Shown here piece by piece: positions 170 through 29,068 of a stretch of 38,498 nt of DNA. This stretch comes from Psammoneis japonica (lineage: Eukaryota), in contig QPGO01000366.1 in assembly GCA_008632985.1 (NCBI GenBank), positions 1-38,498 of the forward strand. The letters run 5' to 3'. Position 1 is the first letter of the stretch; each line of letters begins with the position of its first letter. A model generated the notes under the pieces. It ran no database searches, was not told where the DNA came from, and saw nothing but the letters and a program-made list of their open reading frames with translations. Both the position numbers and the translations under genes were made by a program.

Positions 170-377
170 CACATGTGCAGAATACTAGTGCAATTAATCG
201 TTGGGCGTCAGTTGTTTTTTTTGTTGTGCAATCACAAATAATGTAAGCCATAAAGCGCACGGCAAAGGCCAAGGCGAAAGTAGAACCACATGTGGCTAAC
301 ATTAATGATGTGGCGGATTGAATGGTCACCCTCATTCTTCCAATTTACACATCTTATGTGCAGAATGAAGGGGATCG
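170..377. repeat. Degenerate ~165-180 bp tandem repeat, unit 1 plus start of unit 2 (cut by the copia insertion)
   Basis: Blocks atgtgcagaata / tcacaaat / gcaaaggccaaggcgaaagtagaaccacat / ttaat / attcttcc recur at 353-370, 6530-6620 and 6663-6830. Confidence 0.65.
373..377. repeat. Target-site duplication GATCG (left copy)
   Basis: GATCG lies immediately before LTR start TGTGAG (378); the identical GATCG follows the other LTR at 6516-6520. Confidence 0.92.
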
Positions 378-630
378 TGTGAGCTAATAGTTTAATTAGA
401 ACTGAGTTGACAACTGGCCTTGTGATGAACACAGATGAACCAATTGTGATTGCTTTGAATTTCGAAAAGGTGAGAAGACGAACGTCTCAACAAGTGTTTT
501 CCGACAAGTGTTTGAGATGTCTTCAACAATTTGGGGGCCGTACGTGCAAACAATTTGGGGCCATAGAAATCGAATGTTGACAATCGGATGTCGTAGATGT
601 CGCGAGGCATAACAGACGTCAACAGTCACA
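378..630 (-). repeat. 3' LTR (253 bp)
   Basis: Starts TGTGAGC, ends GTCACA; aligns to 6262-6515 with 11 substitutions and 1 indel. Confidence 0.95.
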
Positions 631-640
631 CTCCCTCATT
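631..640 (-). other. Polypurine tract
   Basis: Minus strand reads AATGAGGGAG directly before the 3' LTR. Confidence 0.8.
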
Positions 641-659
641 CGATGAGATGGGTCACCAG

Positions 660-1362
660 CCGAAAAGCAAACGACGGAGCTTATAGAAAGCCGCCCAGGT
701 AGCTGTTTCGTGAAGATGTCGGCTTGTTGATCGGCAGTGCGAATGGGTTGAACTTTGATGCGGCCGTTGGCGACTTCGTTGCGAAAGTGGTGAAGTGTGA
801 CGTTGAAGTGTCGAGTGCGTGGGCACATTTTGGGTGCGCGAGCGATCTCCAGTGCGGCGGAGTTATCCTCGAACATCGTGCAATGCATGATGGGTGTCGT
901 TTTCACATTAATGTTTCTTTCCTTGAGTTCTTCCAATGGGCACATGATGGATTTCACATGTCTGGCAGCTGCAGAGAGAGCAATGCATTCAGATTCTGCA
1001 CTGCTGAGAGCAAACATTGTTTGCAGCTTGGAAGCCCAATGTGGGGGCACGTTTGCAAACTTGACAGCAAAACCAGAGCAAGAGCGAGCTGCATCAGGAT
1101 GGTTTGCTGCGACAGCCTTGTCCCAGTTGCCACAAAAATCAGCATCAACATGGCAATCAAGGCCACACATGTCGTCTGGTTTGATGATGTGTCCTTCATT
1201 TCGGGTGGCCAGCAGATGTCTTCCAATGTGTTTGATGGCAGCGCCGTGAGAAGCTTTGGGATTTGACGTGAAGCGGGCGCATTGGTGAGCAGCATGTGCA
1301 ATGTCACCTCTTGTTGATTTTTCTAAGAAGTTCAGTTTTCCAACACAGAGCGGCAGTTCCAT
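660..1362 (-). pseudogene. pol: Copia RT C-terminus and RNase H (degenerate)
   Basis: GKLNFLEKSTRGDIA, LDCHVDADF (YxDAD), WASKLQT...LSSAESECIALS (EAEYIA), FEDNSAA, QQADIFTK. Confidence 0.93.
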
Positions 1363-2279
1363 GATTCCTGAAAAGGTGCACCATCCGGATCGAGTCCGAC
1401 AAGTTTTGCAGTGCTTGCTGGGAGCTCATGTGTCTTGGTGTTGTTTGAATTCAAGTTGTTGCGAGTGCCAATGAGACCAAGGTCTTGGAGAATGCTGTCA
1501 ACAAGTTGTGGTTGGCACAGTTTGAAAGAGCCATCCGGTGACGTTTCGATTTTGACGCCGAGGTGGTCGCCAATGTCGCCTTCATCGGACACACGTGTGC
1601 GTGTGCCGAGGTCCTTGATGCATTGATCAATCTCAGCATCCGAAGGATCAAACACAAGACCGTCGTCGGTGCAAACCAGGAATGTGGTCGTTCCACGGCA
1701 GAAAACACATTCGTTGAATGAAGACTGTGTGAAACCAATGTCGAGCAGTGCGTTTCGTAAGAACACAAACCACGTTCGTCCAGTGTCTTTTCCACCATGT
1801 GTGTTTTTCAATGCTTCCAAACAATGCTTGTTGCGATCCAAATTGGGAAAGTTGGTGCCTCTTGGCAGTTCCACAAAGGTGGGCCTTGGAATGTCAGCGT
1901 GTGGACATGCCAGTGCAAAGTCAACTTGCCTTGATTTCCATTTGAAGAGGATGGAGAGAACAAGGAACAGACGGATGATAGTCCAAGAAAGTGTTGGAGC
2001 ATGGGTTTCCTCGTAATGTTTTCCTTTCTTCATTTTGTGTCCTCCCAAGTTGAGTCGACTTTTCCACTTGCATGCTTTGCGTGTGCCGATGCGTCGCTTG
2101 CGCTTCATGGACCACATTGCAGGAAGAACAGTCTCACCCTGTGGTGCATCAGCCTTTTCAATAACTCGCCAATGTTCTCCCATCGGCATGGTCTTGGACT
2201 TCTTTAACCACAGCTTTCTTGAATTCGTGAGCATCTGGTTCGCGAAGAGCCTCGTGCATGCAGAGAGTGTCCGGGTCAT
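1332..2279 (-). pseudogene. pol: Copia reverse transcriptase (RVT_2), degenerate
   Basis: WSMKRKR, KSRLNLGGHKM, ETHAP, QVDFALACPHA, HGGKDTGRTWF, catalytic CTDD at 1662-1673 (YxDD), GDHLGV. Confidence 0.93.
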
Positions 2280-2592
2280 TGGAAGCTTTCATGCTGTACA
2301 AAATGGGATCTTCTAGTTGATTTCGGTCGTCGTCGATGAGATGCATGTCCTGGGCAATAGCTTCACAAGTGGTTGCAGCGTATGAGACAACATTTTGTTG
2401 ACGTTGAAGTTGTGACTCAATGGCCCTTTGGGTCATTTGGCTTTACGACCAGAGCGAGTTGTGACCGTTGGTGTTGGCGATCCTGAGTCGGCTGCAGAAG
2501 TTTCAGAAGTCTCGTTTGTTGTTGATGGACCTCCCTCATTTGGTGGAGCAGTGGTCTCTGTTTGATCCGAGTGGCTTAGAGATGATCCTGTG

Positions 2593-3700
2593 TCATTTGC
2601 ATTGTCCCATGTCAGTTGGTGGCAAGTCCGACACATCTGGAGCAGGAGCTGCAGTCACCTTGCGTCTTGACTTGTCAGTTGTTTTTGCAGAGAATCTGAC
2701 GCGTGCTTGTTTCTTGCAACGACACTTTTCTTGCCATGCACTTCGAGGGATGACGGATGAGCCTTTGACAGTCTCAAATGGGTCGTCAAATTTGACATGG
2801 TGTTGTGGAGAGGCAAGTCCTGTTTCAAGGTCAAGGACAAGTGCCACAGATCTGGCGTGTCTGGGTGAAGGTCCGAGGTAAATGCCCACTCGTGCTCTTG
2901 TTTCCCACTTTGGCAGATGAGAGCCTGACTGTGACTTGTTCTTTAACACATGCACAGGACATCCAAAAGAGTGGAAGTGTGCGAAGAGCTCCATTGGAGA
3001 TTCGTTTCCAGGAGATCTGGCGGCATGATTGTGCACGTTGTTGGCATGGCGCACAGCACATGGCCACAAGTGGTGATCAACAGCGTTTGGCCAGCAATGG
3101 TGAGCGTGCACAAGTTGTGTTCTCGCTTGCTCTTGTAGGTCTCTAATGCGTTTTTCTGCTCTGCCGTTCTGAAAGTGTGCATTGACTCCGCAACAGGTTG
3201 TATGCTGCCCTTGTTGACGTCCCGATTTGATGAATGCGTTGTCGCGAATCGTCCATTGTCGGCGTGACAGTGTTGGAGACGAACTCCGAGGGAGCAGGCA
3301 AATGCTTCACAAGCAATTTTGGCGTGCAGCGTTTCTTCTGAGGTGATCGATTTCTGCAAGCATCCGAAGGACAGGTCGCTGTGGTGGTCGACGAAGACCG
3401 TGACGCAGCGACATCGTTGACATGTTGGCATGCCCTTGAGTTGAGCTGTCAGTCCAGGCGTGGTGGCGTCGAGTTGGTCGACAGACACCACTTGGCCGGC
3501 AGCAGTGGCTTTGAAAATTTTGGTTTGTTGTGTGCCCTTGGTTCGCCATGGGCCTTGGTGGCTTTACCATGGCGGCATGCAGCGCACACGGGTACGCGGC
3601 AATCAGCGAGGCGCTTGGGTGGGTCTCCGGAGTTAGCCACATGCTTGTGCGTGAGAATGGCAAGTGTCCGAGTCGGCAGTGCCAAAGTAGTAGTTCGTTG
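2593..3700 (-). pseudogene. pol: Copia integrase with GAG-pre-integrase zinc finger, frameshifted
   Basis: CAACRHGK, VSVDQL, TVFVDHHSD, HCHADNGRF, LWPCAVRHA, FGCPVHVL, GIYLGPSP, SPQHHVKFDD, spread over several frames. Confidence 0.9.
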
Positions 3701-4217
3701 GAGGAGTCAGGTCATCTGGGAATGTTTGGTCCTCGACGACTGGTGCGCCAAAGTTTGCATCCGAGAAGTCCACCGTGTTGGGTGTCGTGGCTTCTGGTGT
3801 AGCCGCAGTTGAGTTTGTAGGCGTTGTAGCAGCTGTTGAGTTGCTGTTATCGATGGCCTCGTTGAACGTGTGACGTGCAGTTGGTGCAGTGGTCTGTTCT
3901 TCAGGTAAGTCTTCAGGTTCGGGTTCGATGATGTGTACATTTTGAAATACTTTAGGTTCTCGTGCTTGCGAGTTGTACTCACGCTCAAATTCGTTGTGCT
4001 TGTCATAGGATGGAGCGGAGCGGAAGACTGGTACGTTTGCCTTGGAGAGCGGCATAGTGCGAGAGTATTTCTCGTCTTGCCATCGAAGTATCGTTCGATC
4101 GTGAAGTGTCTTTTCATAAGTACCATCCGGATTGTTGGAAATTGGTGCGAGTACTTGTGCCAAGTGTTGTGGCGAGAGAAGACGAATTGGAAGCGTAGGT
4201 ACGTAGTACGTGTTCGG

Positions 4218-4260
4218 NNNNNNNNNNNNNNNNNNNNNNNNNNNNNNNNNNNNNNNNNNN
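4218..4260. other. Assembly gap (N run)
   Basis: 43 N. Confidence 1.
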
Positions 4261-4798
4261 TAACTTTGCCCTTGAAGGTCGATTTGGCGTTGCCACTTGC
4301 AGCTTCCACGACAACGTTGACCTCAGTTGGTGGTTCAATGAAGTCGTCTTTGTTGTTGGTCATGCAGTGGGAGGCATGGTTGTCAACTCCGATGTTGAAC
4401 GAGTCTGTGTCGAAGTTGTGATCGTGTTGATCATTGCAGTTACAGCCATGGGAGCATGATGCAGTGTGGCATGAGGCGTGCTGCGATTTGAACCGTGTGA
4501 GTCGGCAAGTGGCTTTGTTGCACATGATGAAGTGTCGGCGTTTTCGTCGGATATAACGCATGTTGGTCTTGAGACAGTTTGGTTTCCTTGGTGGTCTACG
4601 ACTTCTCAGGAGACATTCTGTCATTCGTCGTAACCAGGAACGCAGGAGTGGAAAGGAGTGGAGCCAGTTCAGCAGTTCCACCATTGCGCAGCAGATCATG
4701 TTGAGCGCACAGAAGAATGGCAGGAAGACTGCGCACACACCACAGAACAGCCACAGCCGCAAGTGCAGCTTGACTTGCAATGCGGTGCTGACGAGCAC
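4261..4798 (-). pseudogene. pol: Start of pol: hydrophobic linker plus aspartic protease
   Basis: FDTDSFNIGVDNHASHCM (motif core at 4361-4390) occupies the copia protease D-S/T-G position; same frame as gag, separated by one TGA. Confidence 0.7.
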
Positions 4799-6169
4799 TC
4801 ACTCTTGATCCGATGCGTCTTGTGCGCCAATGTTTGCCACAGAGGCAGTTGGGTCAGATTCGGCCTTGTCCTTGATGGTGGTGCAGTCCTTGGTGAGGTG
4901 AGCAGACCAATGCTCGTGATGTTTGCACCATTTGCAGGGTTTGCCCTCAACAGTCTTGGTGTGTGATTGTCCGTCTTTAGGAGCCGTGTTGCGCCAGGCT
5001 AGCTTTCCGTAGAAGAGTTGTTTCTTGCATCCGTTGGGTGGGATCTTGAACTTCTGGCACTTGTTGTGATTGTTGGAACCCGATTCTTTTGTTTTGTTGC
5101 TCTTGGTGGAGCTCTGAGCATTCCTGTTTCTGCTGCTGGCAGAGCGTGGAGCGTTGCGAGCTTTGTTGTCGCGGAGAGTCTTCACTTCGGCTTGTGGAGC
5201 TACGATGGTTTCTTGCTCTTTCGTTGGTGCCATCCACTTTTCAGATTCGATGAGGATCTTGCACTTGTTTTCAGCCTTGAGCATGAGAGCATGCACGTCA
5301 AGATCCGATCCATCTTCGCAGTCACTCTTGCACTTCTTGATGGACTCGATGAATTCTGAGTCGGTGCACGTGAGGCAAGCCTTGAACACGTTGTTCAGCA
5401 GGTCGGAACTGGTGTGGCCGCGAGCAGCAAGTTTCTTTTCCAAAGATTTGACGTGGTTGTTGAAAGTCTTGATGTTTTGACCGTCAACTGCAGCCATGCA
5501 AGCGTCTGGATTGCCCATTTGGTCACGGATCACCGAGACAGCAGCCCTTGTGTCGACTTGAGCCTTGGACAGAAGAGCTTTGAGGTGGGCCACACCGCAT
5601 TCCTCATCTCCAACAGTGCACTGAGCCTTTTCTTCCGTTGCCATGATGGTCTTGGAGGCCTCGTCTAGGGTGCTCTGGAGACATGCGAGAAGCTGGTGGT
5701 TGTTCTGCACGTTGCGTTGCGCCAGATTGAGGCAAGCAGCAGATGCGGTGCGAATTTGTTCAGCTGAGATTTGTCCACACTCAGTGAGCATGTCCTTGTT
5801 CTCGACTGGCAAAGCAGGAACTGCGCCATGGTTGATGTCAATCGTGAGGACTTCGTTCCAACCATTGGCTTTGGAGCGGACTGCGAGTTCTTCGAGGAAG
5901 ACTGGGATGTTGGGCGATTCAAGACTGAACTGGGTGTCCAACGGCTTGGTCGCGTCTACGAAAACGAGCGCGTCGCCTTTCTTGGTGTGGTCTAAAACGT
6001 CTGCACGGGCCAGTGCTGGTGACTTGGCGAAAGGTCCTGGAGCAGCTGCTGCTGGTGGTGCAGGCATGTTGTTCACAATCGGCTGGACAGCCGCCTGGAC
6101 AGCTTGTGCGATGGCATTGGCGAGCGCGTCAGCGCCGGGCCATGACGAGGTCTTGAAGTTCCTGAGCAC
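4799..6169 (-). CDS. gag: Copia Gag (open frame but heavily missense-mutated; true start uncertain)
   Basis: 456-aa ORF after the 5' LTR with C-terminal knuckle CKWCKHHEHWSAHLTKDC; only one Tyr in 456 aa. Confidence 0.85.
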   Translation of the reverse strand: MLRNFKTSSWPGADALANAIAQAVQAAVQPIVNNMPAPPAAAAPGPFAKSPALARADVLDHTKKGDALVFVDATKPLDTQFSLESPNIPVFLEELAVRSKANGWNEVLTIDINHGAVPALPVENKDMLTECGQISAEQIRTASAACLNLAQRNVQNNHQLLACLQSTLDEASKTIMATEEKAQCTVGDEECGVAHLKALLSKAQVDTRAAVSVIRDQMGNPDACMAAVDGQNIKTFNNHVKSLEKKLAARGHTSSDLLNNVFKACLTCTDSEFIESIKKCKSDCEDGSDLDVHALMLKAENKCKILIESEKWMAPTKEQETIVAPQAEVKTLRDNKARNAPRSASSRNRNAQSSTKSNKTKESGSNNHNKCQKFKIPPNGCKKQLFYGKLAWRNTAPKDGQSHTKTVEGKPCKWCKHHEHWSAHLTKDCTTIKDKAESDPTASVANIGAQDASDQE

Positions 6170-6245
6170 GTCTTTGTGCTCCTCTTGTCAAACGGCGCAT
6201 CTTGTTGGTTTGGAGAGAACGTTGCTGGTTCGATCAAGAACACTT

Positions 6246-6261
6246 TGTCGCAGAGGAAGCG
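6246..6261 (-). other. Putative primer-binding site complementary to the D-arm of initiator tRNA-Met
   Basis: Plus strand 6246-6263 TGTCGCAGAGGAAGCGTG versus eukaryotic tRNA-iMet nt 8-25 TGGCGCAGCGGAAGCGTG (16/18); abuts the LTR. Confidence 0.6.
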
Positions 6262-6515
6262 TGTGAGCTGACAGTTTAATTAGAACTAAGTTGACAACTA
6301 GCCTTGTGATGAACACAGATGAACCAATTGTGATTACTTTGAATTTCGAAAAGGTGAGAAGACGAACGTCTCAATAAGTGTTTTCCGATGAGTGTTTGAG
6401 ATGTCTTCAACAATTTGGGGGCCGTACGTGTAAACAATTTGGGGCCATAGAAATCGAATGTTGACAATCGGATGTCGTAGATGTCGCGAGGCATAAATAG
6501 ACGTCAATAGTCACA
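6262..6515 (-). repeat. 5' LTR (254 bp)
   Basis: TGTGAGC...GTCACA, copy of 378-630. Confidence 0.95.
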
Positions 6516-6520
6516 GATCG
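6516..6520. repeat. Target-site duplication GATCG (right copy)
   Basis: Identical to 373-377. Confidence 0.92.
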
Positions 6521-6830
6521 TTTCGATCACTCTTTTGTCGTGCATTCAGAAAGGCAAGCCATGAGGCGTCTAGTGTGAAGGATAAGGCAAAAGTAGAATC
6601 TCATATGGTTAATAAAAATGTGTCGGATTGTTTGACAATGTTTCTTCTTCCCTTTGACCTATCTGATGTACAGAATACGGTGCATCATTCTTTCCTTCTT
6701 GTGTCGTGTGGTCACAAATGCAAACCACAACGGCTCTAGAGCAAAGGCTAAGGCAAAAATAGAGCCGCATATGAGCAATGTTAATATGTATGATTTAATG
6801 GTAAAGTTTATTCTTCCTTTACTGCACCAT
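6521..6830. repeat. Degenerate tandem repeat, rest of unit 2 and unit 3
   Basis: aaggcaaaagtagaatctcatatg (6584-6607) and aaggcaaaaatagagccgcatatg (6750-6773) match aaggcgaaagtagaaccacatgtg (271-294). Confidence 0.65.
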
Positions 6831-7048
6831 AAGGGGCCGCTTTATGTCGATTTGTCGATGCATCCGTCATGGTCGGCGGCGGCAGAGCGTGGCTTTCTAC
6901 CGGCATCATATATCTGGTTGAATGTGGGAAACAGCACACCCGCCTATACAAAATTAGACGGGAATTACCGCACTGCACTCATTTTTTGTTCCTTCCCCTG
7001 ACCCCTTTCAGTCGTTCCTTCCCGCTAAATTACCCTCATTTCCCGGGT

Positions 7049-7110
7049 ATTCCCCAAAAGGGTAAGGCAATTCCCCCTTACCCTTGCCATTTTGGGGAAT
7101 CCCCAAATGG
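7049..7110. repeat. Nested inverted repeats, probable transposon sub-terminus
   Basis: attccccaaaa (7049-7059) pairs with ttttggggaat (7090-7100); aagggtaagg (7058-7067) with ccttaccctt (7076-7085); ccattttgggg-aat-ccccaaatgg (7087-7110). Confidence 0.7.
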
Positions 7111-7689
7111 ATGAAACCAAACCAAGCCTTGAGTTTGCCAAGGCGATGAACAAGTGCAGCACTCCACCGCCATCTTGTGACTGCTGGTGCGTTGAACCTT
7201 CGTCATCCCACACACCGCCGACCACCGACCTGGACCACGCATGGAAACAACATGATCAATCATTGTGAGCACCTGTGTGCATGCATGTGAGTGAGTGCGG
7301 CAAGCAAAATTCTGCTTGATGTGCAGTCTGTCCACACCCAGGCAAAAATCTTGAAATGAAGAAAGGTCCCTGCTGCTGCACGTGCTGCAAGTGTGCGGCA
7401 TCCAACAAAGATCCCGGATCCTTGGATGCAGGTTCCTTGTTGGGTGTGGCTTGTGGCTGGAATTGATTGTTCGAAATTTGGTGCAGATTTCTGTGTGAAC
7501 AGCACAACACGTCACCAAGTTGAAGTTCATTTCATTGGAGGGAAAACAAAAAGAATGAGAATTGTCACGTGCCTGGTTGCTCAACGACGACATTCACAGC
7601 TTCTTGAAAATCCTTGGCTTTTGGCACTGCAACCTGTGCCCACCTTGCCAACCCACCTGCGAAGCTCCCTGAGGGCCGAAGTGCAAAAA

Positions 7690-9694
7690 CCCATCATGTC
7701 TGATGTCCAAAAATTGTTCGCATCAAAACACATGCATTGGCTGTTCTTGGATTCTTGCGTTCAGAATCAATGGATGCCAGCAGACCTGTGGGCAGAGCAC
7801 CACAATGCAAAATTCAATGTCAATGATGAGGGGGTGCAAATCATGGGCAGAGAGTTGAAGAAGCAGTGTGGAAGTGTCGGCGGCATTTCAAATGTTGCAA
7901 AGGAGAACAATGTTGTTGCTGACGAAGTGAGAATCTGTGCAAAACGGAGTGCTCATGTGGCCTTGAGAAGGGTGGAAAACCATCACAACAAATGTTTCTT
8001 TTTGTCACCATTGGCAAGCCCCATTGGCACCTTTGTCCACCAGCAGCAACTGGCAATGACTCTGTGGAAGTGCGGCTGCAAAGTGGATCTGTCAAGACAA
8101 AATTTGGAAGAACTGCACTTGACCACACCAAAATGCCACCCAACACAGATCCAGACACACTCAACAGTGACAAAGCACAACAAGCAAAGAAGAAACAACA
8201 TCTTTCTGAAGAAAAAGACAATGATGGGATGTCAGTTGAAGAGCTGGATTCTGTCAGGTGACAAATTGCACCTCGACACACGACTGTTGGGATTCGACTC
8301 AAGTGCACAGCATTTTTGCACCGACCTTGGTTTACCCAGATGATGTTGATGTAAAGACAGTTGCACAAGATCGCGCTGACATTTTGTCTGCTGTTGTCAA
8401 TCATCCACATGGCTTTAAGTCAGTGTTGCCTGATCAGGATGACAAGAATCTGGCTGCCGACTGTGAAAAAATGTGTCCATTCGGCATCGTGCACTTCACA
8501 TCATGGCAGTGCTTCAGGCTGCACTTGACAACCTCAAGGGGGGAGGAAAAGAGATTGAGGGCAATGTGACTTGGGGCAAGTGCTGTTGACATGCTGCAAA
8601 AGATGGGCTCCAGCCCCAGGTGGGTCTTTTTGTGACATTTGGCCTGCACAATTCTGCATGCAAGCTCTGAAGCAAAATTGTTCAGTGATTAAAATGCAAA
8701 TGATCGCCAACAGAAAAAGAGGCAATTTTGTGAATGCATCTCCTCCTCCACACTTGAAGTGCATTGTTCACATTGTGCCCGGGTGCGTTCTTCAGACATT
8801 GAAGAACACACCCAGTGCATTTTCATTGTCACAAGTGCAGAAAATAAAAAGCCTTTGGCTTCACAAAACAGGCAGCAGAGAACAATTTTTTACAATGCAA
8901 CACGCAGAAATGTGTGCGCAAAACATGCAACGGATGACGAAAAACATTTTGTCACAGGTCAGCAGTGCGAGGTCCCACCCAGAGCTGGAATGCATCAAAA
9001 AAACTGGAGGAGGATGGTGTTGTTGCCATCACGAACTGGCTTGCTGTGCAGCATTGGTGTCAACATTTGGCACAAGTGGGAGACCACTTCCCTCAAAAAA
9101 CCAAAAGAGGCAAGCCTGCACTCCCACCTTTTTTCAGCGGCAATCCTGAAGTCAAGAATGCATTCATTTGGCAAGCAGCGCGCAATCTGAAAGATCTTTC
9201 AATTGAGTTGATGCACCACAAGAGCCTTTGCCAGAAGACAATTCCTCCTGCACTGCTGCTGAGCACAAAGAACGATGTTGTTGTGGAAGATGTGATGAAT
9301 TTGAACAAACTGTTGAGTCTGCTGGCAAACTTCATTTGCCAACTGAAGAAGAGGAAGATGCCAAAAGTTTGTTTCTGAAGCAGTTTGGACCAAGGACACT
9401 TTCCAATTGACAGCAGCATGATGGGTGCGTCTTCTCAGATTCAAGTGTGCTCACAGGATGAAAAGCTTTTGTGTTGATGGTTGTGAGAAGCCTGCCATGA
9501 AGGCGCATCAAAAACAACTCACCAAAGAACACCTTGAGTTGGAGACAAGGTGCCACAGGTGGGTGCAAGTTCCGCTGGAAGAAGCAACGGAGCTCATGAA
9601 TGCAGACTCCCTCTTTGCAGTGCACTTGGTTGGGCAGCTCAATCACTCATTTTCAGCACTCATTCCAGAGGATGGAGAAAGTTCATTTCCCTGA
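7690..9694 (+). pseudogene. Degenerate DNA transposase, probably IS630-Tc1-mariner-like (5' part; catalytic region not seen)
   Basis: 9422-9590 reads WVRLLRFKCAHRMKSFCVDGCEKPAMKAHQKQLTKEHLELETRCHRWVQ, fitting the W..LG(F/W).Y...K..YxDGHE...YR motif of such transposases once Cys/His are reverted to Tyr. 5' extent approximate. Confidence 0.55.
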
Positions 9695-11039
9695 ATGGAC
9701 TGGATTCAAAATTTTCCTGAGACAATGCAAAACAAAGTGTCTCTACAAACCAGTTGTTTGAGCTGTCAAAAATTGTGCTGCAATGATGGATTCTGTTGTG
9801 GAATGAGGCATGGGCAGGAAACTCTTGTTTTGGCGGGAAACTTCCCTCCAACATGGCCCCAATTTGCTGTCCGCAGCCACCCTCCTGAACTTCTGAGTTT
9901 GCTTCCCACAAATCTTCATTGCCAGCCATGCTGCATGGTCTCTTGTGTGCTTTTGCATTCAGCTCCTTTTGGCCCCTCATGTCCAATGGGGGGAAGCCGC
10001 CCTTGCCATCTCCTGGAACAAGGATCAAGAAGGTGGCAACCAGGATGGCTGTCAGCAGCAGCTGGGGTGCTTGCCTTGATGTTGTGGCACGCAATGTTGC
10101 CACGGAGCTGAGAAACTTTCTCTCTCTACAAACCAAGTCATTCATGCAGAGAGTCAACTTTGTCACAGATGCCGCAGAGCTTCTGCCGTCTCCCAAAGCC
10201 AAGCAACTCATTGCCTTTGTTTGTGACAACTTTGTGAGCCAACAAGCAAAACAAAGCATGATGGGAGAAGATTCCTCCCATGCTCCAAATGCTGCACAAG
10301 CAGAACAAGTCCAAAAGGACTGCAATCCTGTGTCCAAGACAGCTTTGGCATCGGCCACATCTGCCCATTTGACTCCTGCTCTTGAGTTGTTTCCTGGAGA
10401 TTTTTTCCCATTCTTCAAAGCTGCCCAACAATTTCTTGATCCAGATGCTAAATCCAACTGCAATGACAACAAGGCCAAGAAGAAGAAAAATCTGTCTGTT
10501 CCTGCAATGAGCAAGTTTAGCCACAAAATGCCGGGTTGTCACTTCAAAGCAAGAACATTGTTGCTGCACCATCAAGGACGAGCCCCTGCAAGTTGCAAGG
10601 GATCTGTGGCCATGATGGTGCCACAACCCCAAAACTTGGTGGGAGCACATTCTTGCCAAAGGTTCATGGGGTCTTTCTCCATTGGCAAAACTGCACGTGT
10701 GCAGCTCATGACAAAAAATGACCCAAATGCACCACCAAAGGACACACAGAGAAAAACTGTGGACCACTTTTCATCATTGGAAGATCTGCCCACATCCATG
10801 TTGCAGCTCAAAATGCAGGAGCTCCACAACAAGGTTTCGAACAAGATTTGCCACTGCATCACACAGAGACAAAGAGAGGTGGCAACAATGGCCCACCCTG
10901 CATCAGAAATCTGTCTTGATGGAAAATCATCTGACACAAAAATCTCCTGCACACAAGACCCAGTTTTGCACTGTCACAAATGGGGTTTGCAGGTTCCAGA
11001 GGGTTTCAATGCAGAGCCCGTTTCTTTGGAAGTTTGCAC

Positions 11040-11525
11040 TTGACAGCCACCTTGGCCTTCACCACTTGTTGCACCCACCTCAGTTTGTTCTTGGTCAACA
11101 ATTTTGACTCTCAGGATTTAAGATGCAATCCCTCAACTTGTGGCAATGATTGGGATGTGCCAGCCACCTGGAGGAGCTTGTCCAGTTGGAATGCCACAGC
11201 CTTGGGATTCACCATTGGCTTGGGTGCCATTTTGATTCTGGTGCTGACATGATTCACCACCTTGCAAGTTCTGTTGGCCACCACAGCCTCCACAGCCATG
11301 ACCACCACAACCACCTTGATTACAACAGTTTCCTTGTTCTCAACCTGGGTGTCCACCTTGGCCACCACAACCTTGTGGACCACAACCTTGACAGCCGCCT
11401 TGGCCTCCACCACGGCCATTGTTGCATCTACCTCAGTTTGTCCTTGGCCAACAATTTTGACTCTCAGGATTTAAGATGCAATCCTTCCACTTGTGGCAAT
11501 GACTGGAATGTGCCAGGCATCTGGA
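11040..11525. repeat. Direct repeat ~135 bp (11040-11172 and 11389-11525)
   Basis: Both contain caacaattttgactctcaggatttaagatgcaatcc...acttgtggcaatga; duplicates the zinc-knuckle segment. Confidence 0.88.
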
Positions 11526-12340
11526 CTCTGCTTTGACACAAGTGCCATTGCTGTGGCTGCATCTTGAGGCTTGGTTGGATGAGAAAGTTCCTTTCCTCTT
11601 CTCATCTTGTTGTTTCTTGGTGTTTCCCTTGTCTGCAAACAACTTCTTGTTGTTCATGCAACTGGCAATCTCCACCCAGCTCTGGCATGCTTCTCATGCC
11701 AGGGTCAAAAGGAAAACTGTCAAAAATCATCTTCTTCTTCTGGGCACCTTTGGCTTGTGAGACATGTTTCCTGGGAGCTTGTTTGAACAATGCATCAACA
11801 TCTCCATGCAATCTGCACATGCCTGCACTTAGGATTGAAAAAGGTTTTTTCAAAGTTGGCAAGCACCCAAGCATTGCATCATGTGCCTCATTGTCAGAAC
11901 AAGACAAACAAAAGCAACTCATCTCTTGATCAAAGCACACCACCATTTTCTGAGGGTCTGGAATCGAATCAGTCAAATTGGCCCACACTTGTCCTCAGCA
12001 GCATCTCCGTCAGCACTTCTTCAAAATTTTCGAACAATTCTGCACCAGTCATGAACTCCAATTTTGCAGCAATCTTACAAGTTCAATCTTCAACAAACAG
12101 CAGTGATTCAATGCCGTGAAAGACATCAAAACAAGGACACTTCTTAGCATGAGCAGTGCCATCATCATGCAATTGAGTTGATTTTACGCTCTCCAAGTGA
12201 GAATGCTCAAATTTTGCCTCACAGTCAATGCAGGGCTCCTTCAATGATTCACTCATTGTCAAAGATCAAATGCAATCACACAATGATCCTTTCTGAGGGC
12301 TCCACCTTTCTCTCCAATTGTTGCCATTGGATTGCCAAAT
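11040..12340 (-). pseudogene. Degenerate retrotransposon Gag-like ORF (CHHC knuckle, Gly/Arg-rich tail), possibly Ty3/gypsy
   Basis: GAELFENFEEVL, DAMLGCLPTLKKPF, KKMIFDSFP, CLAHSSHCHKWKDCILNPESQN, then GRGGGQGGCQGCGPQGCGG (eroded RGG/YGG). Confidence 0.5.
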
Positions 12341-12992
12341 CTTGTTCTTGGCAATTGTGTTGTCTCACTCCTTTTCTTGTGCTGAATGGCCCAGTTTGCT
12401 GTTTTTGCTTGCAGTTCTCTTTTTCTCTGTTTCAAATGTTGATCAGTTGGGAACAACCCCAGTTTCCATCCAATTCCTCTGTTGACTGCAATTGCAGTGC
12501 AAGGTGAAACAAGACAAAGACTTCAGCATCAACAGATTTGTGAGGAGAGGCCAAGGCAATCAAGGTCATAAACAGCAAAGCCCATTGCAGTGGCTTTCTC
12601 TAACTGCCGATGCATTTTTTGATGCTGCACGTCAGAAACAACAGGTGCACAACACTGCAACTTTTGTGGTGGCATGCCGCAGGCACTTTGCAAAATGTCT
12701 TGGCTGCATTCCCATCTCCTTGCTCTCTTTGAGCACACTTGAATGCTGTTGTGTTGCTTGTCACTGCATGTGCAATGTTTGCCATCAGCACCATCATCAT
12801 GGTGTGCACACAAACAAGAAAACCCTGTTGTTGACTTGATGACACGAAACATGACAACAGCCCAAGAAAGCAAAAGTTCAGATGCAAGCAGAGAGCAGCA
12901 TGATGACAACAGTTCTTTTTGAGCTCCATTGTTCACAAGCTGTTGCCATCTTTCTTGTTGTTTGTCATGATTGCTGCCATGGGACAGGCATT

Positions 12993-13317
12993 GATGGGGA
13001 TCTGTTCTGGTTGGATGCTGCCAACTGATGACAACAATGTTTGCATGAGACACCCTGTGTGCAGTTGGAAACAAACTGCTTGTCAATGACATTTTTCAAA
13101 ACAAATTTAACTCAACCAGCAGGATGGTGCCAAGCAGAAATGCTGCCCCCAGGGGGTTCTGTCAGATGAGCTGTGAATGACTGTGTGACACTTTGAATGA
13201 GATGGGGATTTGGGCTGGATCTGCAATCTGGCAAGGCAACAACAATGTTTCCATGAGACACCCCATGTGCAGTTAGAAACAAACTGCACATCAATGATGT
13301 TTTTTGAAAATGAGTTT
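12993..13317. repeat. Direct repeat ~115 bp (12993-13108 and 13201-13317)
   Basis: Shared gatggggat...acaacaatgttt.catgagacaccc..tgtgcagtt.gaaacaaactgc...tcaatga. Confidence 0.8.
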
Positions 13318-16132
13318 CACTGCAGCCACCTGGCAACTCCCCTCAGTCGCTGTTGCTGCTGCCAGACAATTCACTTGAGCAGCCCGTCTCATCCTCGCTG
13401 CTCCCCAAATGACAGCTGGAAAAGTTTGCAGCCTTTGTCACCCACCAAAACTCTGCATGCTGATGGGTGCACTCATTGAGGGTTTTTTTTGTTTTGTCAC
13501 CCAGCAATCTGCCAACACTGGCATCAAACATTGACATCTTCTCCAGCAGAGAAAATCTTTTGTTGTCAAGCTGCTCTTTTCACCATTGCATCAATGAAGT
13601 GCACGTGCAAGAACATTGTTTTAAAGGCTGTCATTGCCCAAGTGCCAAAAATGCAGAAAGCAAACTGCAGATCACAGAGTGAGGGGGGGGTGCAAAAGCA
13701 GTGTTCAGAGAACAGAGCTCATGGCAAAATCTGAAAAAGTGACAAAAGAGCATGCATCAAAAACAAGAGCAGCCAGATCAAGCCACAAAATTGACAAGAA
13801 CAAGAGGAACAAAACAAAGCAGATGCATGCCATTGCAGCATGCCTTGCCACATGTGGGTGGCAGATTTGGATCCATGTGATGAAAAAGCTCCACCTTGTA
13901 AAATTTGGCATGCAATGATTTGAAGTCTCTGCAGATGCTGTGAGATCATGATGCAAGCAGGAGAGGCTGGCCGGCAATGGATCTGACACTCATCAAACAT
14001 GGCCCATCTGTCCTGTTGTTCAATTGTGGCATGTCCATGGCAGAAAGCAACAATCTGATGTGGTCAGCTGTTCTTGAGAAACATGGTGTCAGTGCAGGAC
14101 AATGGCTTGCATGGCATGTGCAATGCCTCAAAGCAATGGATGTGCCAGCATTGTGAGAGATCATTGAGAGGGTGATTTCCAATGGCAAAACCCTGTCTCC
14201 TGTCTGGTTTTGCAGGAAACACCAAAGGGGGTGGATGCAGCACCCACAATCAGTGGCATGAGGCTGGAAATTGAAGCACCAGAGACAAGCATCATGTCAC
14301 AAACTTGGCTTGCAAAGGAGTGCCTGGTGATCCAGAGTTGGACCCACCTGCAAACAGGGATCCCTTTGCAAGGACAAGATGATCCACACCATGCAAATGG
14401 TGCAAACAGCCACTGTCACATGGCACAAATGAGGTTTAGAGAAAATGGCTTTGTCAACAACATGGCAGTCAAACCATTGGCAGACATCCTTGGGTGGAGC
14501 ATCTGGATCAAACAGACACTTGGATTGTGGAGGCATCAAAGATGTCACAGTGTTGGGTGTGCAGGACAAAGGGGACATTTTTGATGCAGCGCAGTTGCAG
14601 CCAAGCTCATCACCAACAAGGTCCTTGAAATCTGCCATTGCAGAAGTGCCTGATGTTGTCACAGGTGGAGGTGCTGATGTGCATTTTTGTGGGAATGAAT
14701 TGTCAGAGAGTTTGTTCCAATCCTGGCAGTTGCGTTTCATGCTTGGGTCAAAGTGCATCTCCACAGTGCTGGTGACAATGGTCACTTTCTGAGCACAATT
14801 CTTTGCAGTCAAACATCATCTGTCATGAGAGACATCATCAACCACTGGAGTTCAGACAAGAAGAGGAGCCCCTGCTTGAATGGAGATTCCACTGACTTGG
14901 CATCAGCAGGGTCTCATGTCTGTGGGATGAGGATGTTCTTGAGGATGTGCTCTCTTGACAGAGGTGGCAACAATGCCATCTTTGGATTGGGTGTGTTTGG
15001 CATCATCATGAAAGGATCAAGATCAAGTGGCAACTTGCCACAAACTTCACCCATGTGCTTTGAGACCTCAGAGAGATGTGGGTGTGCTGGAAACATGATT
15101 TGAACCTCTCAGAGGCTGTTGGTGGTGTGCTTTTCACTCTCAGTTGGCACCATGGTTCTCAGGTGCACAAAAAGGTGGTCATGCACAGCCATTTGATTTG
15201 CACTCAGGAAAAGCCAATGTTGCCATTTGTCAGCAAGCCACTGGTGCCACTCCAGTCTTCAACAGTGATGCCAAGTTTGTTGCAAAAACCAGCTCAGTGG
15301 CACAAACGGGATGATGTTTTTAGCACTGTTTTGTGTCTCAGAAAATGCCTTGGTTCTGAGAAAAAGGTGCTTGCGGGAGCAGAAAAGTGAGGCAGACTCG
15401 ATGGGCTCACAAAATGATCAAGGCAAGATGGGATTTGCAGCGCAAATGAACATGCGATGGCACAAGGCCACAACCTAACGGAGCAGCGACAGCAAGGGTG
15501 ACACACGTGTGAGACCTCCCTGCAAACCGATGACAGTGACAACACGTGTGCTAGCTAAGAAGAAAAAATGAGAAGTAAATCTCGGATGGAGATCTGCTGT
15601 GTCCGAGCACCGTACATCACTCGGTCAGCTGACATTGAAATGAAGCATTGCCGATTGCTTTGATGGGGGTGGCAAATGTGACTCACCCTCTTTAGACATA
15701 GAGAATGTGGAAACGACACGGAGTAGAAAGTAGAATGTATTGATAACAATAATTCTGTACAAAGGAGAGCTTCATAATGTGACATCACTAGTCATCTGGT
15801 CCGTTTTGTTTGTCGTACAATACATACTTTTGGTGGAGCGTCGCCGGATGATAGATGGACAGCCTGCTGTTTCAATTTTCAATTATGCTAGGTCAACACC
15901 AGACCTCCCATGTTGGGAGCGGTTGGCATAATGTTACTCAACGCTACTCTGGCTATCTATCTCTATTCTACAGTACCTAGTATGCAAGGCTTCTCTCTCT
16001 AGAGGCTACAGTAAGTCGTATCACGGTACTCTTATAATGCCCGCGACGTTTGATCTCGTGCAGTCAATGAAGCTTGTCTTTGAATATGACACCGTTCAAG
16101 AAAACAGGAAGGAAATCCCATACCAGTGTCTG

Positions 16133-17717
16133 TCATCTGCGATTGCTGCGTTCGTGTTGAGCCTTGGCGGCTTTCTTCAAGTAAGGTTGCATCTCCTTCT
16201 GCCTCTTCGTTCGACGCTTTTCGGCAACAGAAATCTTGTTCTCCACGAGATTCTTTAGTTGGTCCATCTCCTCTTTGCTCACTTCTGGCCAGCATTTTGG
16301 ATACCACGGTCCATCTAGCTCAGCGACTTCATCCGCGCTACGTGCACCGTTTTCTTCGTTCCACAAAACGCTTAATTCCGTCCCATACCCACGGGGTATT
16401 ACAGAACTTCCCGGGCCATACCGTATGGAATACCTTCGATATACCAGAGCCTTGTCGTGGTCGTGGTTATGGCTTTGTACCACACTCCGTTCAAACGGGA
16501 CCGTTCGATGAAAAACCCATCTCTCGTGAAATATGATGTCTCCTCGTTTCAAATCATAAACTCGCCTGGTCTCTTCCATGCGTCGATGGATATGCGGTGC
16601 CTCCACCTCCAGGTTACATGTACCTGCACCAATTCGGTTCTCAAACATGTCAGCCACTGACTGAAATCCTTCTGTCGGGAACGTAAGAGTAGAACCTATT
16701 GCACGGTGAGCATCATGACGCCATGAGGCACTGTGTGAGCCTACCGCCAGAGCGAATCCACCCCCATTCGCAATGGGCATATCGTCGATGGCTATCCAGG
16801 CATTCACACCGGGAGAAGAGGCAGTTGCGGGCCAGAAGCCTAGATCATCGACGTGCCAACCACAAACGTACTCTTCGTCGTCTTTTGTAAGAAAAATATC
16901 CCTAACGCGCAAGCAAGAGAAAGCTTAGCATGAACAACAAGATGGCTTCGAGCAACACACGACAAATTAGACAAACAATTTCGTCACCTCATTAGGCGCA
17001 GGGTTTGGTTCTTGTCAGTTGATAAGCCAAGAAGATCAGCCGCAAACTCTGGTACAGCAGAGGTGAGAGCCACTTCTCTGAATGCAGATAAATCGCGGCT
17101 TTGTCTCTCATCGTCAGAAGGTCCGACATTGTCCTTTTCTATTTCACCGTTTTCGTCGTTTGAAGATGGAGGATCAAGAAAAGCAGCTCCCATTCGAACC
17201 ATGTGAAACTGTGTATTGGATCGTTTCTGATTCCGCTTCTCGTCAACAATGCGTTGCTCACTAACGAGCTGGGCAGAAGCATGTTCTAGTCGTAGAAGCA
17301 TATCGTCCGTCAATAGGCCCCTGATAGCAACGACACCATCTTTTGCAAAGGCGGATCTGATATCGTTCGTAACTAGCTTCCACTTCCTACAGTCACATTA
17401 TGTATGATTGGATCATCAATTTCTGGGGCCTTGCCCAGGGGAGCTCGGTATTTTAGTCGCGTCTCGAATGCATGAAAAAGCTCATCATCGTTGGTTACAA
17501 TAGCTACAGCCACTGCAACAAGAAGTACAGCAAATGCCATGGAAAGCGCCCATTTCGAATTGCCAAATAAAGCGATTCGATCTGTCAATTCGTACAGAAA
17601 CTGCGATCTCTTGTCCTCCTCGTCTTCAAACAATGAATCTTCCTCCTCCTCTTCCGAAGACAAAACGTCATGGGAAGAATCATCGCCACTCTCGTCTCCA
17701 CTGCTGCCATCATCCAT
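16133..17717 (-). CDS. Phytanoyl-CoA dioxygenase (PhyH)-like 2OG-Fe(II) oxygenase with N-terminal TM segment
   Basis: FAKDGVVAIRGLL, GWHVDD (HxD), VNAWIAIDD, GSH, GDIIFHERWVFHRT; intron 16902-16987 joins in frame (MR|DIF); one probable indel near 17390; start at MDDG assumed. Confidence 0.82.
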
Positions 17718-22712: not shown

Positions 22713-23315
22713 GAGTACTTGAAACCACAACAGAAAACTTCCCGACTAGTAGAGTTATTCAAAGTCATTAAGTACTTCACGCAAAACCAATGCTGAATCC
22801 GTCTACGGTGCAAGCACCACACTGTCCACGGCCAATGGTGCTTGTTCAGGCCCAAAAAGGAATCATCGAATCGGGCATTGAGTTTTCAATCCCCCACAAA
22901 GCTGAATCCATAATGTTGAATGTAAAGGTACGTGTTGTGCGTAATATGTGCCGAACTGCAGGCGCCACGAAGATTCTGCACTCGATAGACCCGAAACTTG
23001 CCGATCGACACGATCACAAAAGCAACTGCACCACGATGATTCATACACACGGATCCAGCATGTGGTCAGAAAACCCGCCGCCAGACTCAATTCTTCCCTT
23101 TGGAACTGGCAAAGCAAACAAAAGCAAGTGTGAGTGTTGCTGCCTACAGTCCTTTCCGAACCCAGTCTTCGTCCCGCCTCGCCATTTCCCCGATTCCTTT
23201 TCTCTCTTTTCTAAATACTCCACTCCCTTTCTCTAACTCCCGCTCCTGTCTTTCTATCTTCAATTACCACTTTTCTCTCTTCCCATGCATTTCTTCGTTC
23301 CCTCAAGCACTCGAA

Positions 23316-25249
23316 CTACCCCACGGTGCCATGTCGCCGGTTCAAGATTCTAGCGGACCTTCGAACAGTTCTCCCATCAGCAGAGAGGACATGCACGCTT
23401 CCCAAAGCTTCTCTAAGCCGAGCAGACCGCCTTGGAATGACGGAATCCGTAATGAGGGATGCAGGTGAAATAGCGTGCTGATCTTCTGCCTGTTCCGTCT
23501 CCACCATCAACCCGTCTCCACCAACGTGCTGGTCTGGAATGCGCTCATTGCCTTCGTCGGAAGGGATCTCTTGTGACGAAGGTGCCACCACTGCTGACGC
23601 CGTCTCGTGGATAGGATCGTCGCTGTCAAAAGCACGGTGATCCGTAGTGAGGGATTCCCGCACTTCGACATACCCTTCTTCTTCTCGATCTTCTCCCAAG
23701 GCTTCAGGCACGCCATTGTGTTGGTTTGGAACGGAAGCCTCATCGTCAGACGGAACCTCGCACGCCGAAGGCACCGCCATTGCTGATGCCATGTTGTGGA
23801 AGGGACCATCCTTGTCCGAAGCAGGTAAGCAAGACCCTTCCAATTGTTGTTCACCAATCAACACTTCATGCAAGTCATTGTGTTGATCTGGACCAAACGC
23901 ATCGAAATCGGAAGGGTCATCTTGCACCGCACTCGCCACTGCAGGAACCGTCACCTCTTGGACGTGATCATCATCTAAAAGAATCGCATCGAGAGGATTC
24001 TCTGCTGCAACAGACGCAATGGAAGATGTCTCGTGTTGAATTGATGTGTCAGGTGCAAGCTGTGATTGTAGAGAGTAAAGTAGAAGTAAAAATGGGTTTT
24101 GGTCAATTGTCAATGAAAAGGAGTGACAATGCAAATGATAAAATGACTTACTCTCTGACTTCTCTCCTCAGGACTAGCGCTGAGGCCAATGCCACCGCAT
24201 GCGTCATCTTGATCACGTGTGATTAGGCGCCGTTTCCGAGGACCCAACACTCTGTGCTGATGCTTCCTTTTTTCGCCGGAGAAGGCGTCGATGAAACGTT
24301 CATTCGAAGATCCTTGAACAGGTAACTTCTCCATGAGGTACAACAAATGATCAGGCTTTGAGTGCTCGTCCATGCGACATTTTCTTGGGGCGCGGATAGT
24401 CTTTTGGCGGAGGTCTCGACGCGTGCGAGGAAAGCAAGTGTGGTTCACACACGAGCAAGGCTTTGGGCGACCCCAGCCGAATGCCAGATGACTGTTTCCG
24501 TTGTCACAAGTCTCCTCGTGACTGGAACCAACAAGAACGACCTCATCATCTTGCTCACAGGAAGTCCGACGACGTTTGCGTGAACCAAGTTCCGCACTGC
24601 ATGTGTGCCGCAACATCCTCTTGTGACCAGAACTCGGATCGATGAACAGGCATTCGCTTGAAGACTGGCTGGCAATCTGTTGCACAACACTTGCAAAGTG
24701 ATCGTGCTGAGAGTGCTCATTGTAACATCGGAGTAGCGATGACGACTCGTCTGAACCCAAGTACATCGGTGACCAGTCTGAAAGCTCCGGCTGAACTTCC
24801 AGACGAGATGGTTTCGAAATGCCTTGTCGTGATTCATGCTCGGATGTTGTTGAGGATGCATCAATGCTTGTCAATTCGTCTGGCAAGTGCACATCGGAGG
24901 TGTCGTGTTTGCTTGGAATGACGCTCAACTGAACCGATGACTGCCATTGGAGACGTTTCGAAGGACGTCTGCTTGTCGAAAGCTTCATGTCGCGGGAAAC
25001 CTCGTCTTCGGTCAACAGCCTGCTGCGTTTGTCGCCGACGCTCATGCGAGCACGCCCCATGCTCTCCATTGGAACGGTGCGGGAAGAAAGGTTGCATCTC
25101 ATTGTTTGTTTGGACATTGTGGACGTGATTGAAAGCATCATGAGATTGTGTGGTTTTTGCGCAAAGAGATCTTGTTTGAAACCGGTGGGTTTGATTTCTT
25201 GCGACATCGGGTTCATCGTAGAAACATGCGGGAATGTCATACCCGACAA
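23316..25249 (-). CDS. Hypothetical two-exon low-complexity protein with internal repeats and C-terminal RRSAR motifs
   Basis: Exons 25249-24152 and 24059-23316; GTAAGT...CAG intron 24060-24151 joins in phase 0 (SQR|LAPD); start uncertain. Confidence 0.65.
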
Positions 25250-25360
25250 CTGTTGCCAAAATGTCTGATCACCAAAAACAACATTTAAGCAATGAAATGT
25301 GCCGTTGTTCGTGACTGAAGGAGATGTTTTGAAACAACCCGAAGCGCGCGGGCGATGGGC

Positions 25361-25368
25361 GCGCGAAA
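25361..25368 (-). promoter_or_regulatory. E2F-like site TTTCGCGC (second copy 25495-25502)
   Basis: Matches TTTSSCGC about 110 and 250 bp upstream of the 25249 ORF start. Confidence 0.3.
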
Positions 25369-25649
25369 ATTTATTTCGATTGATTTATTTCTCTCAACCA
25401 AGAACCGCTCATACGATCAGCATTCTCTTCAACGACAATGCAAGCTGTGTTCGTGGTGACTGAGGGATGCACATGTAAGAATTTTTTCTGAACTGCGCGA
25501 AAATAAAGAGGGTGGCTGAGTGGGCCACCAGAGTTGAACATTGCCGACGACAGAACTTGGCCATTCTACAATCTGGCAATCTGATGGTGGCAAGGATGAT
25601 TCAACATTCATGGCAATGGAATCCATCACGCAATGGGCTGTCATACATG

Positions 25650-28600: not shown

Positions 28601-28850
28601 TTTGCCTGATGCTGTCTGCTCCAGTGCTCAGTCATTGTCAGTCAGATTTGTGGTCCTTCAATCAACTGCTGTGCTGACTGATCTGACATGAGACATGTAA
28701 AATGAGTCGTTTCTCTTGTGGAGATGTCAGAGTGGCAAGAGCACGTCTGGTGCCTGCCTCACCAGACCTGCCCTTGAAGCAAAAGTCTGCACTCGAGGAG
28801 CATGCACAAACACCAACAAATCTTTCGATTGCTTTTAGGTTTCCACAAGA
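25650..28850. mobile_element. Second decayed repeat block, TpA- and CpG-depleted, family unidentified
   Basis: Same CA/TG-rich composition as 7.1-15.5 kb; eroded RGG-like stretch at ~26840-26920 (minus); contains an assembly gap. Confidence 0.6.
27558..27884. other. Assembly gap (N run)
   Basis: 327 N. Confidence 1.
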
Positions 28851-29068
28851 GAATGAGTAGATGTGACTCCTCACTCTCTTGCGTCTATTTTGCATCTACT
28901 AGAACTTTGTGTCAAACTGCTGGCGGAGGCCACACCGTTCTGTGCGGGTCCTGAAAATGCAAACCTGCATTATGTGAAGTGCTGTCTCACGACATTTGCA
29001 TAAATCCGGGTTCCAACATCTTTTCCCATCTTACATAGAGTTTGTTGCATCAGACCAACTGACCGGCC

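Follow-up and report, generated by a model that had tools for sequence, protein, structure and literature searches.

Erasure of TpA dinucleotides in a Ty1/copia retrotransposon of the diatom Psammoneis japonica, with missense changes at conserved tyrosines and long frames left open

What kind of mutation replaces the conserved tyrosines of a retrotransposon and leaves long frames open in it? The question is raised by a stretch of 38,498 nucleotides from the diatom Psammoneis japonica (GenBank assembly GCA_008632985.1, contig QPGO01000366.1, positions 1 to 38,498; here called the window), in which positions 373-6520 of the minus strand hold a complete Ty1/copia long terminal repeat (LTR) retrotransposon, with two LTRs, a 5-bp target duplication, gag, and a pol region in the order protease, integrase, reverse transcriptase and RNase H (PR-INT-RT-RNase H). 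An earlier note on this DNA had claimed that Tyr to Cys/His and Leu to Pro changes at conserved motifs reveal a loss of the dinucleotide TpA (TA), by which the element was disabled without stops. The observation of a TA-erasing missense pattern in this copia element is confirmed here. We hold it very probable that the element is a young insertion of a multi-copy family, hit after its integration by A:T>G:C mutation solely at TpA.

All nine motifs quoted in that note were found on the minus strand (Table 1), and their residues were compared with 32-33 aligned full-length relatives, which are only about 55% identical to the element. Tyrosine is the commonest residue among the relatives in eight of the nine. 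At the second Pro (CCA) of the remaining motif, PPHW, the relatives have Ile (21) or Leu (10). For a wider count a column was called conserved if at least 70% agreement was found among at least 15 of the 33 relatives aligned frame by frame, which gave 401 columns. Only three of the 17 conserved Tyr columns are kept, the others having become Cys (nine), His (four) or Phe (one), against 340 kept of the 384 non-Tyr columns (Fisher p=1.9e-10). The claim about tyrosine therefore holds, with 13 of 17 conserved Tyr columns now Cys or His. The claim that Leu to Pro is a systematic change was overstated, since among 37 conserved Leu columns one has become Pro and one Ser. Trp (14/14), Asn (13/13) and His (17/18) are kept nearly throughout; Val is kept in 17 of 23 columns, with four changes to Ala, Ile in 6 of 13 and Met in 1 of 4. 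Such protein effects would be a direct read-out of A:T>G:C mutation at codons that have a TA within or reaching into them: Tyr to Cys or His, Val to Ala, Met or Ile to Val, and occasionally, by the same TpA change, Leu to Pro or Ser.

The 58 replaced columns were then sorted by the codon change that each implies. TpA>TpG in one step explains 14 and TpA>CpA in one step 10; a further 6 are CpG>TpG/CpA, 12 are transversions, 8 need several steps and 8 are other or ambiguous transitions. As a null we simulated context-free single substitutions on back-translated consensus codons, with host or uniform codon usage and with transitions weighted from 1 to 20 times transversions. This codon-level null had been named beforehand as the test able to overturn the claim, and it was rejected: the TpA class makes up 24 of the 50 single-step replacements, against 3.0-10.1% under the null (p<=1.1e-11 at every setting).

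The nucleotide composition tells the same story without reference to proteins. In the element interior, without an unmutated patch taken up below (4,933 bp), 35 TA are seen where 285.7 are expected, an observed/expected ratio (o/e) of 0.12. The ratio is 0.39 in the 3′ LTR and 0.58 in the 5′ LTR, 0.71 and 0.78 in the flanks (positions 1-375 and 6516-7080), and 0.62 in the gene zones of the window (16-23 kb and 29-37.8 kb). The loss of TA is thus confined to the element, and the flanking DNA and neighbouring genes are spared. The product dinucleotides are in excess on the plus strand, CA at an o/e of 1.68 and TG at 1.36. The AA ratio is unchanged (1.17 in the element, 1.12 in the genes), so that the base before the mutated A is strictly T. 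This last result bears on error-prone repair synthesis in silenced chromatin, by a polymerase with WA-motif errors like those of polymerase eta. The strongest hotspot of polymerase eta is indeed A>G at TA, but the enzyme also hits AA, which stands at 1.17 in the element and 1.25 in a TA-poor zone elsewhere in the window at 7-15 kb, where TA has fallen to 0.12 and 0.05. With no AA depletion at a near-saturating loss of TA, a polymerase strict for TA would be needed, and we regard this explanation as very unlikely.

The TAs that survive have a flanking bias. Over all depleted zones of the window they number 35 in YTAR context (Y, pyrimidine; R, purine), 54 in mixed and 9 in RTAY context, against 127, 344 and 207 in the gene zones (chi-square p=2e-6); in the copia element by itself they are 11, 19 and 4 (p=0.03). 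With the gene zones standing in for the ancestor, the bias fits a target 5′-TAY read on either strand. Among single contexts in the depleted zones TTAA is the most resistant, with a relative survival of 0.38, and ATAT the least, with 0.015. An estimate of strand-specific flank preference from the product excess was dropped, its ratios falling above 1 and below 0 and the gene-zone baseline being unfit for the purpose.

The two LTRs date the process. Alignment of the 5′ with the 3′ LTR gives 11 substitutions at 10 dinucleotides, every one of them TA against TG or CA, with no other substitution and one single-base indel. Eight of the changes lie in the 3′ LTR (5 TG and 3 CA in the sense direction) and three in the 5′ LTR. 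At a single site one copy has CA and the other TG, and an ancestral TA must there have been hit twice independently. Since six TAs survive in both LTRs and ten sites changed, the LTR held about 16 TAs at insertion, a normal content; and because a single template gives rise to both LTRs of an element, their differences arose after integration. Eleven TpA changes against no other substitution also point, indirectly, to a TpA rate far above background. Both strands are hit about equally: the sense-strand ratio TG:CA is 14:10 in the conserved columns, 9:9 at read-supported sites and 6:5 in the LTRs, where the first two sets may share sites. The hits in the 3′ LTR, in sense order, are five TG followed by three CA, an order that could reflect two strand-coordinated events, the sites being few; no such runs were found among 18 read-supported interior sites (10 runs where 10 are expected, by hand count).

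An alternative with one real point in its favour is that the A-to-G changes predate integration: editing like that by ADAR or APOBEC would have acted on the element RNA or on single-stranded complementary DNA (cDNA), and this copy would have inherited the result. Conversion is higher inside the element, with 13 of 16 Tyr columns (the patch left out) against 11 of 32 LTR sites (p=0.005), and a gradient from interior to LTR is known for cDNA-stage editing of retroviruses; a taper of conversion toward the outer LTR ends was not significant (Mann-Whitney p=0.14). Editing before integration does not account for LTRs that differ at ten TpA sites with both strand types in each LTR, for the near-equal hits on the strands, or for the normal TA content of the LTRs at insertion. 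Nor does it reach the TA-poor zones at 7.1-15.5 kb and 23-29 kb, which show no retroelement homology, and in the alga Bigelowiella natans the same changes appear during culture, in DNA already integrated (Mettrop et al., bioRxiv 10.64898/2026.01.13.699255). We give this alternative very little credence and return to mutation of integrated DNA.

Other copies of the family were taken from contigs of one public DNA sample (runs X1-X3). The family is multi-copy in X1, with many variant contigs whose summed depth is several times that of single-copy-like contigs. Contigs of X1 and X2 mostly have T or A at the places where they depart from a C or G of the window. Read from window to contig, the X1 differences are 158 C>T, 128 G>A, 59 A>G, 77 T>C and 77 transversions. 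Among 40 individual differences listed of about 520, 18 have TA in the other copy where the window has TG or CA, and none has the reverse; in 8 the window has TG or CA against CG, in 1 CG against TG, 10 are other transitions and 3 are transversions. The direction of change is loss of TA, as the earlier note had argued: conserved Tyr codons of the element read TGY or CAY, and other copies have TA at its TG and CA. Classical repeat-induced point mutation (RIP), which creates TpA, is excluded, again in agreement with that note.

The effect on reading frames follows from the codon table. By enumeration of codons, TpA>TpG/CpA turns TAA into TGA or CAA and TAG into TGG or CAG, and never turns a sense codon into a stop. 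Removal of TAA and TAG was borne out: in the element interior they number 8-9 per kb on both strands together, against 35-41 in the gene zones, and TGA is unchanged at about 40 per kb. Runs of at least 100 codons without a stop occur about twice as often in the element, 40 per 10 kb against 21-23 in the gene zones. Internal stops are absent from the RT segment (286 codons) and from the RNase H segment (241 codons). A process that creates no stop and removes TAA and TAG would in this way let a dead element retain long open frames. The idea that missense alone disabled the element did not survive, as pol shifts frame five or more times, near 3701, between 3646 and 3551, at 3243, within 2300-2600 and at 1343; other copies have one extra base at 3701, 3646, 3551, 3243 and 2440. 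A contig of single-copy-like depth (52.4) fits window positions 2980-3353 with 6 other letters and shares the window state at 3243, without the extra A present in a high-depth contig, so the frameshift at 3243 is not peculiar to this assembly.

The bases missing from the window relative to other copies (among those listed, at 695, 2440, 3243, 3551, 3646, 3701 and 4491) are A or T in six of seven, and indels in the window copy are about as frequent as substitutions outside TpA and CpG. They could be a by-product of lesion repair or due to chance; of six single-base deletions examined for a tie to TpA, two restore a TA, about the rate expected by chance.

Decay of CpG, presumably methylated, would be a second and slower process on the same DNA. 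It is present but weaker, with a CG o/e of 0.82, six conserved columns (Arg to Cys, a change of the CpG-decay type, in three conserved columns) and 8 of the 40 listed differences. No CpG differs between the two LTRs, and the decay is therefore slower than the TpA process.

Might there have been no mutator at all? TA and Tyr could be scarce by nature in this family, or the pattern could be an artefact of assembly or sequencing. A scan of metagenome contigs found 80 related copia loci with a TA o/e of 0.34-0.91 (median 0.68). Nine relatives share 10 conserved Tyr positions, at which 52 of these loci have no Cys or His and 28 have one; the window element has eight, and keeps 114 of 123 control positions in the same comparison. 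Its TA and Tyr pattern thus differs from the native composition of the family, every one of the 80 loci being at or above 0.34 with at most one Cys or His. One of the two metagenome search patterns includes a Tyr that is lost here and is biased against mutated copies, so the lack of a mutated relative among the 80 loci says little about how widely the process has spread. For an artefact there is an unmutated tract beside a run of N, where the assembly may be a mosaic of copies; against it, the LTRs of this single element differ at TpA only, and the contig of depth 52.4 agrees with the window as described above. That no mutator acted is in our judgement scarcely credible. The three loci of lowest ratio among the 80 (L022, L032 and L036; 0.34-0.37) contain 600-bp stretches at 0.12-0.21, and L032 and L036 have Tyr at 7 of the 10 positions and Cys or His at none; the three could be stretches poor in TA by nature, or lightly mutated copies belonging to other organisms.

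Several points weigh against the account given here of TpA mutation after integration. A tract of about 650 bp inside the element (3565-4217) is unmutated, with 9 Tyr in the 194 residues of its reading frame (counted from the translation). A high-depth X1 contig over 3746-4330 has 8 other letters in 585, where other segments differ by 6.5-10%. The tract may be an assembly mosaic, the outcome of gene conversion or a truly spared piece. Of the replaced columns, 28 of 58 are transversions, multi-step changes or other transitions; they may represent lineage divergence, and yet show how imperfectly a consensus of relatives about 55% identical stands in for the ancestor. X1 is possibly the sample behind the window assembly, and its independence is to that extent incomplete. 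The TAY preference is read from survivors, with gene zones as a substitute ancestor, and the preference at the next base (+1) is unclear where conversions can be counted directly: 10 pyrimidines against 8 purines at the 18 read-supported converted sites, and 7 against 4 at the converted LTR sites (both hand counts). Finally, the process is known here from sequence, from which any enzyme chemistry would have to be deduced; TpA is self-complementary, so that a hit on the A after T looks the same as a hit on the T before A.

As to what the mutation would consist of, A:T>G:C at TpA would give TG or CA according to the strand, and would have taken about four fifths of the interior TAs and fewer in the LTRs. 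A candidate that we rate somewhat below an even chance is deamination of adenine to hypoxanthine at 5′-TA, preferably 5′-TAY, by a DNA-acting deaminase like TadA/ADAT working on silenced repeats. In the natural targets of TadA/ADAT-like enzymes, a U precedes the A that is deaminated. The multi-copy state is the only lead on how the element is recognised. The attacked base might instead be the T of TpA, converted by a dioxygenase of the TET/JBP type into 5-hydroxymethyl- or 5-formyluracil that pairs with G and yields T>C, with a flank rule 5′-RTA. 5-Formyluracil can pair wrongly with G, and in some protists T is modified preferentially in TpA. The LTR, column, read and dinucleotide counts fit an attack on thymine equally well, TpA being self-complementary. 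The sole experimental report of the signature, the B. natans preprint, proposes adenine deamination, itself unproven (bioRxiv 10.64898/2026.01.13.699255), and we consider thymine attack improbable.

The coordinates of the element and of its motifs are collected in Table 1. Matches are colinear with 33 full-length relatives (tblastn; 1281-1500 residues). The Pfam matches of the integrase, gag_pre-integrs and SH3_retrovirus, are both weak and under their cut-offs. The single Tyr reported for gag stands, and the length of 456 residues given with it does not. The TGA of gag is in frame and pol goes on in the same frame beyond it; the pol proteins of relatives begin only about 40-180 residues ahead of the protease. 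Gag and pol may be natively split by one stop that is possibly read through.

Table 1. Position in the window of the parts of the copia element and of the nine motifs
Feature	Coordinates	Strand	Basis or comparison
Target-site duplication, 3′ side (CGATC on minus strand)	373-377	-	Read directly; same 5 bases at 6520-6516
Target-site duplication, 5′ side (CGATC)	6516-6520	-	Directly outside 5′ LTR
3′ LTR, 253 nt, TG...CA ends	378-630	-	Alignment to 5′ LTR
5′ LTR, 254 nt, TG...CA ends	6262-6515	-	Alignment to 3′ LTR
gag frame, 462 residues, 1 Tyr, zinc knuckle CKWCKHHEHWSAHLTKDC, TGA end at 4801-4799	4799-6187	-	Translation
pol start with protease region, same frame as gag	4261-4798	-	tblastn frame-3 matches over 4262-4690, translation
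Run of 43 N	4218-4260		X1 contig spans it with 4 extra letters
Unmutated tract, TA o/e 0.72, Tyr-rich frame, adjoins N run	3565-4217	-	TA counts, translation, X1 contig
Integrase over three frames (LWHCRLGH, HCHADNG, WPCA, GCPVHVL)	2593-3711	-	tblastn, translation, weak Pfam
Reverse transcriptase (CTDD, DHLG, ETHAP), open over 318 codons, frame differs from RNase H	1332-2288	-	Pfam RVT_2 E=7.5e-26, tblastn
RNase H part of pol (HVDAD, ECIALS, PPHW), TGA end at 621-619	619-1425	-	tblastn of 33 relatives, translation, motifs
Motif CTDD	1673-1662	-	Tyr in 33/33 relatives
Motif DHLG	1568-1557	-	Relatives: Tyr 23, Phe 10
Motif ETHAP	2009-1995	-	Tyr in 29/33 relatives
Motif HVDAD	1152-1138	-	Relatives: Tyr 22, Phe 6, Trp 4
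Motif ECIALS	990-973	-	Tyr in 21/33 relatives
Motif HCHADNG	3272-3252	-	Tyr in 32/33 relatives
Motif WPCA	3066-3055	-	Tyr in 30/32 relatives
Motif GCPVHVL	2964-2944	-	Tyr in 30/32 relatives
Motif PPHW	1047-1036	-	Relatives: Tyr 8, Phe 8 (tie)

Around the element lies a degenerate tandem repeat of about 166 bp; three of its units (265-307, 6578-6620 and 6744-6786) share a 43-nt core that is 72-77% alike. X1 contigs link 372-379 to 6516-6530 with variable letters between, and represent other units of this repeat or an empty site. Elsewhere in the window lie two TA-poor zones, in which neither a Pfam family nor copia homology was found (7.1-15.5 kb and 23-29 kb). The first, at 7100-15500, has a TA o/e of 0.05, an AA o/e of 1.25 and almost no CpG left (0.00-0.5). 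In the second, at 23000-29000, CpG is about 1.0 at 23-25.5 kb and lost at 25.5-29 kb, and a search with its 424-residue frame at 24110-25384 gave no homologue. Both zones fit a quick erasure of TA followed by a slower decay of CpG. The host genes beside these repeats look normal, with a TA o/e of 0.5-0.8 in their DNA: a PhyH-like dioxygenase (16133-16924), a PfkB kinase (29063-30247), a DnaG-type primase with a CHC2 zinc finger (33295-34929, minus strand) and a UCH protease (36576-37184).

More speculatively, and with less than even odds, diatoms, and with Bigelowiella perhaps a wider part of the stramenopile, alveolate and rhizarian (SAR) group, may possess a dedicated genome-defence mutator that finds integrated mobile DNA, keeps within its borders and deaminates A or modifies T at 5′-TA(Y), on both strands and to saturation. 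If so, there would be a eukaryotic A-to-G editor of DNA with strict dinucleotide specificity, and kilobases of sequence poor in stops in all six frames would be possible raw material for new coding sequence. Set beside fungal RIP, an eraser of TpA restricted to repeats would do a similar job by the opposite chemistry. That a second algal lineage has a near-saturated case, on a dated LTR retrotransposon, speaks for a genome defence of wide occurrence more than for an isolated event. The finding also provides simple sequence assays, namely the spectra of LTR pairs and counts of Tyr to Cys/His, and a warning to annotators: long open frames in TA-erased DNA arise because TAA and TAG codons have gone, and are no evidence of genes.

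Among known systems, RIP of Neurospora and other fungi offers one comparison. It makes C>T changes mainly at CpA, creates TpA and stops, lowers GC and depends on cytosine methyltransferase homologues. The likeness lies in dense, dinucleotide-specific transitions in repeats or mobile DNA, on both strands, with inactivation and sharp boundaries; the element in the window differs in that it loses TpA, gains GC and cannot acquire stops. APOBEC3 and ADAR do their editing before integration, on cDNA or RNA, and hit one strand; ADAR favours a U before the edited A. Here too there are deaminase-type transitions and a retroelement riddled with missense changes, but in the window the LTR differences postdate integration, the hits fall on both strands and the base at -1 is strictly T.

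In its build the element resembles, by description, the CoDi Ty1/copia elements of diatoms, which have the order PR-INT-RT-RH (RH, RNase H) and short LTRs (Maumus et al. 2009, PMC2806351), as does the window element. Putatively active CoDi copies are described there as having no more than one stop or frameshift between gag and pol, and a search of the text found none of the terms 'point mutation', 'RIP' and 'degenerate' (PMC2806351). In full-text searches of the literature, TpA-erasing mutation was not found described for diatoms or for retrotransposons; the B. natans preprint alone describes the signature.

We take the mutation in the window to be of the same kind as this TpA hypermutation of B. 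natans, an unrelated alga; a single 2026 preprint is its only account in print so far (Mettrop et al., bioRxiv 10.64898/2026.01.13.699255). According to that preprint, it affects integrated DNA of nucleocytoplasmic large DNA viruses (NCLDV) and virophages; in mutation-accumulation lines 230 of 231 mutations in the hypermutable regions, two viral insertions, were A>G or T>C and on TpA, and they arose de novo in culture at about 1000-fold the background rate. Its authors also describe clusters of TpA-depleted windows, with reverse-transcriptase and DDE Pfam domains enriched in TpA-depleted coding sequences, and propose adenine deamination, without proof. The two cases share A:T>G:C change limited to TpA, TpG and CpA products on either strand, a regional distribution, and foreign or mobile DNA as the target. 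They differ in the host, a chlorarachniophyte there and Psammoneis japonica here, and in the target and its depth: two viral insertions with a mild depletion (Rho 0.45 in the NCLDV region) against an LTR retrotransposon at a TA o/e of 0.12, with neighbouring repeats in the window at 0.05. The timing comes from mutation-accumulation lines in B. natans and from one LTR pair in the window. The window element also has a survivor bias toward YTAR and a superimposed decay of CpG.

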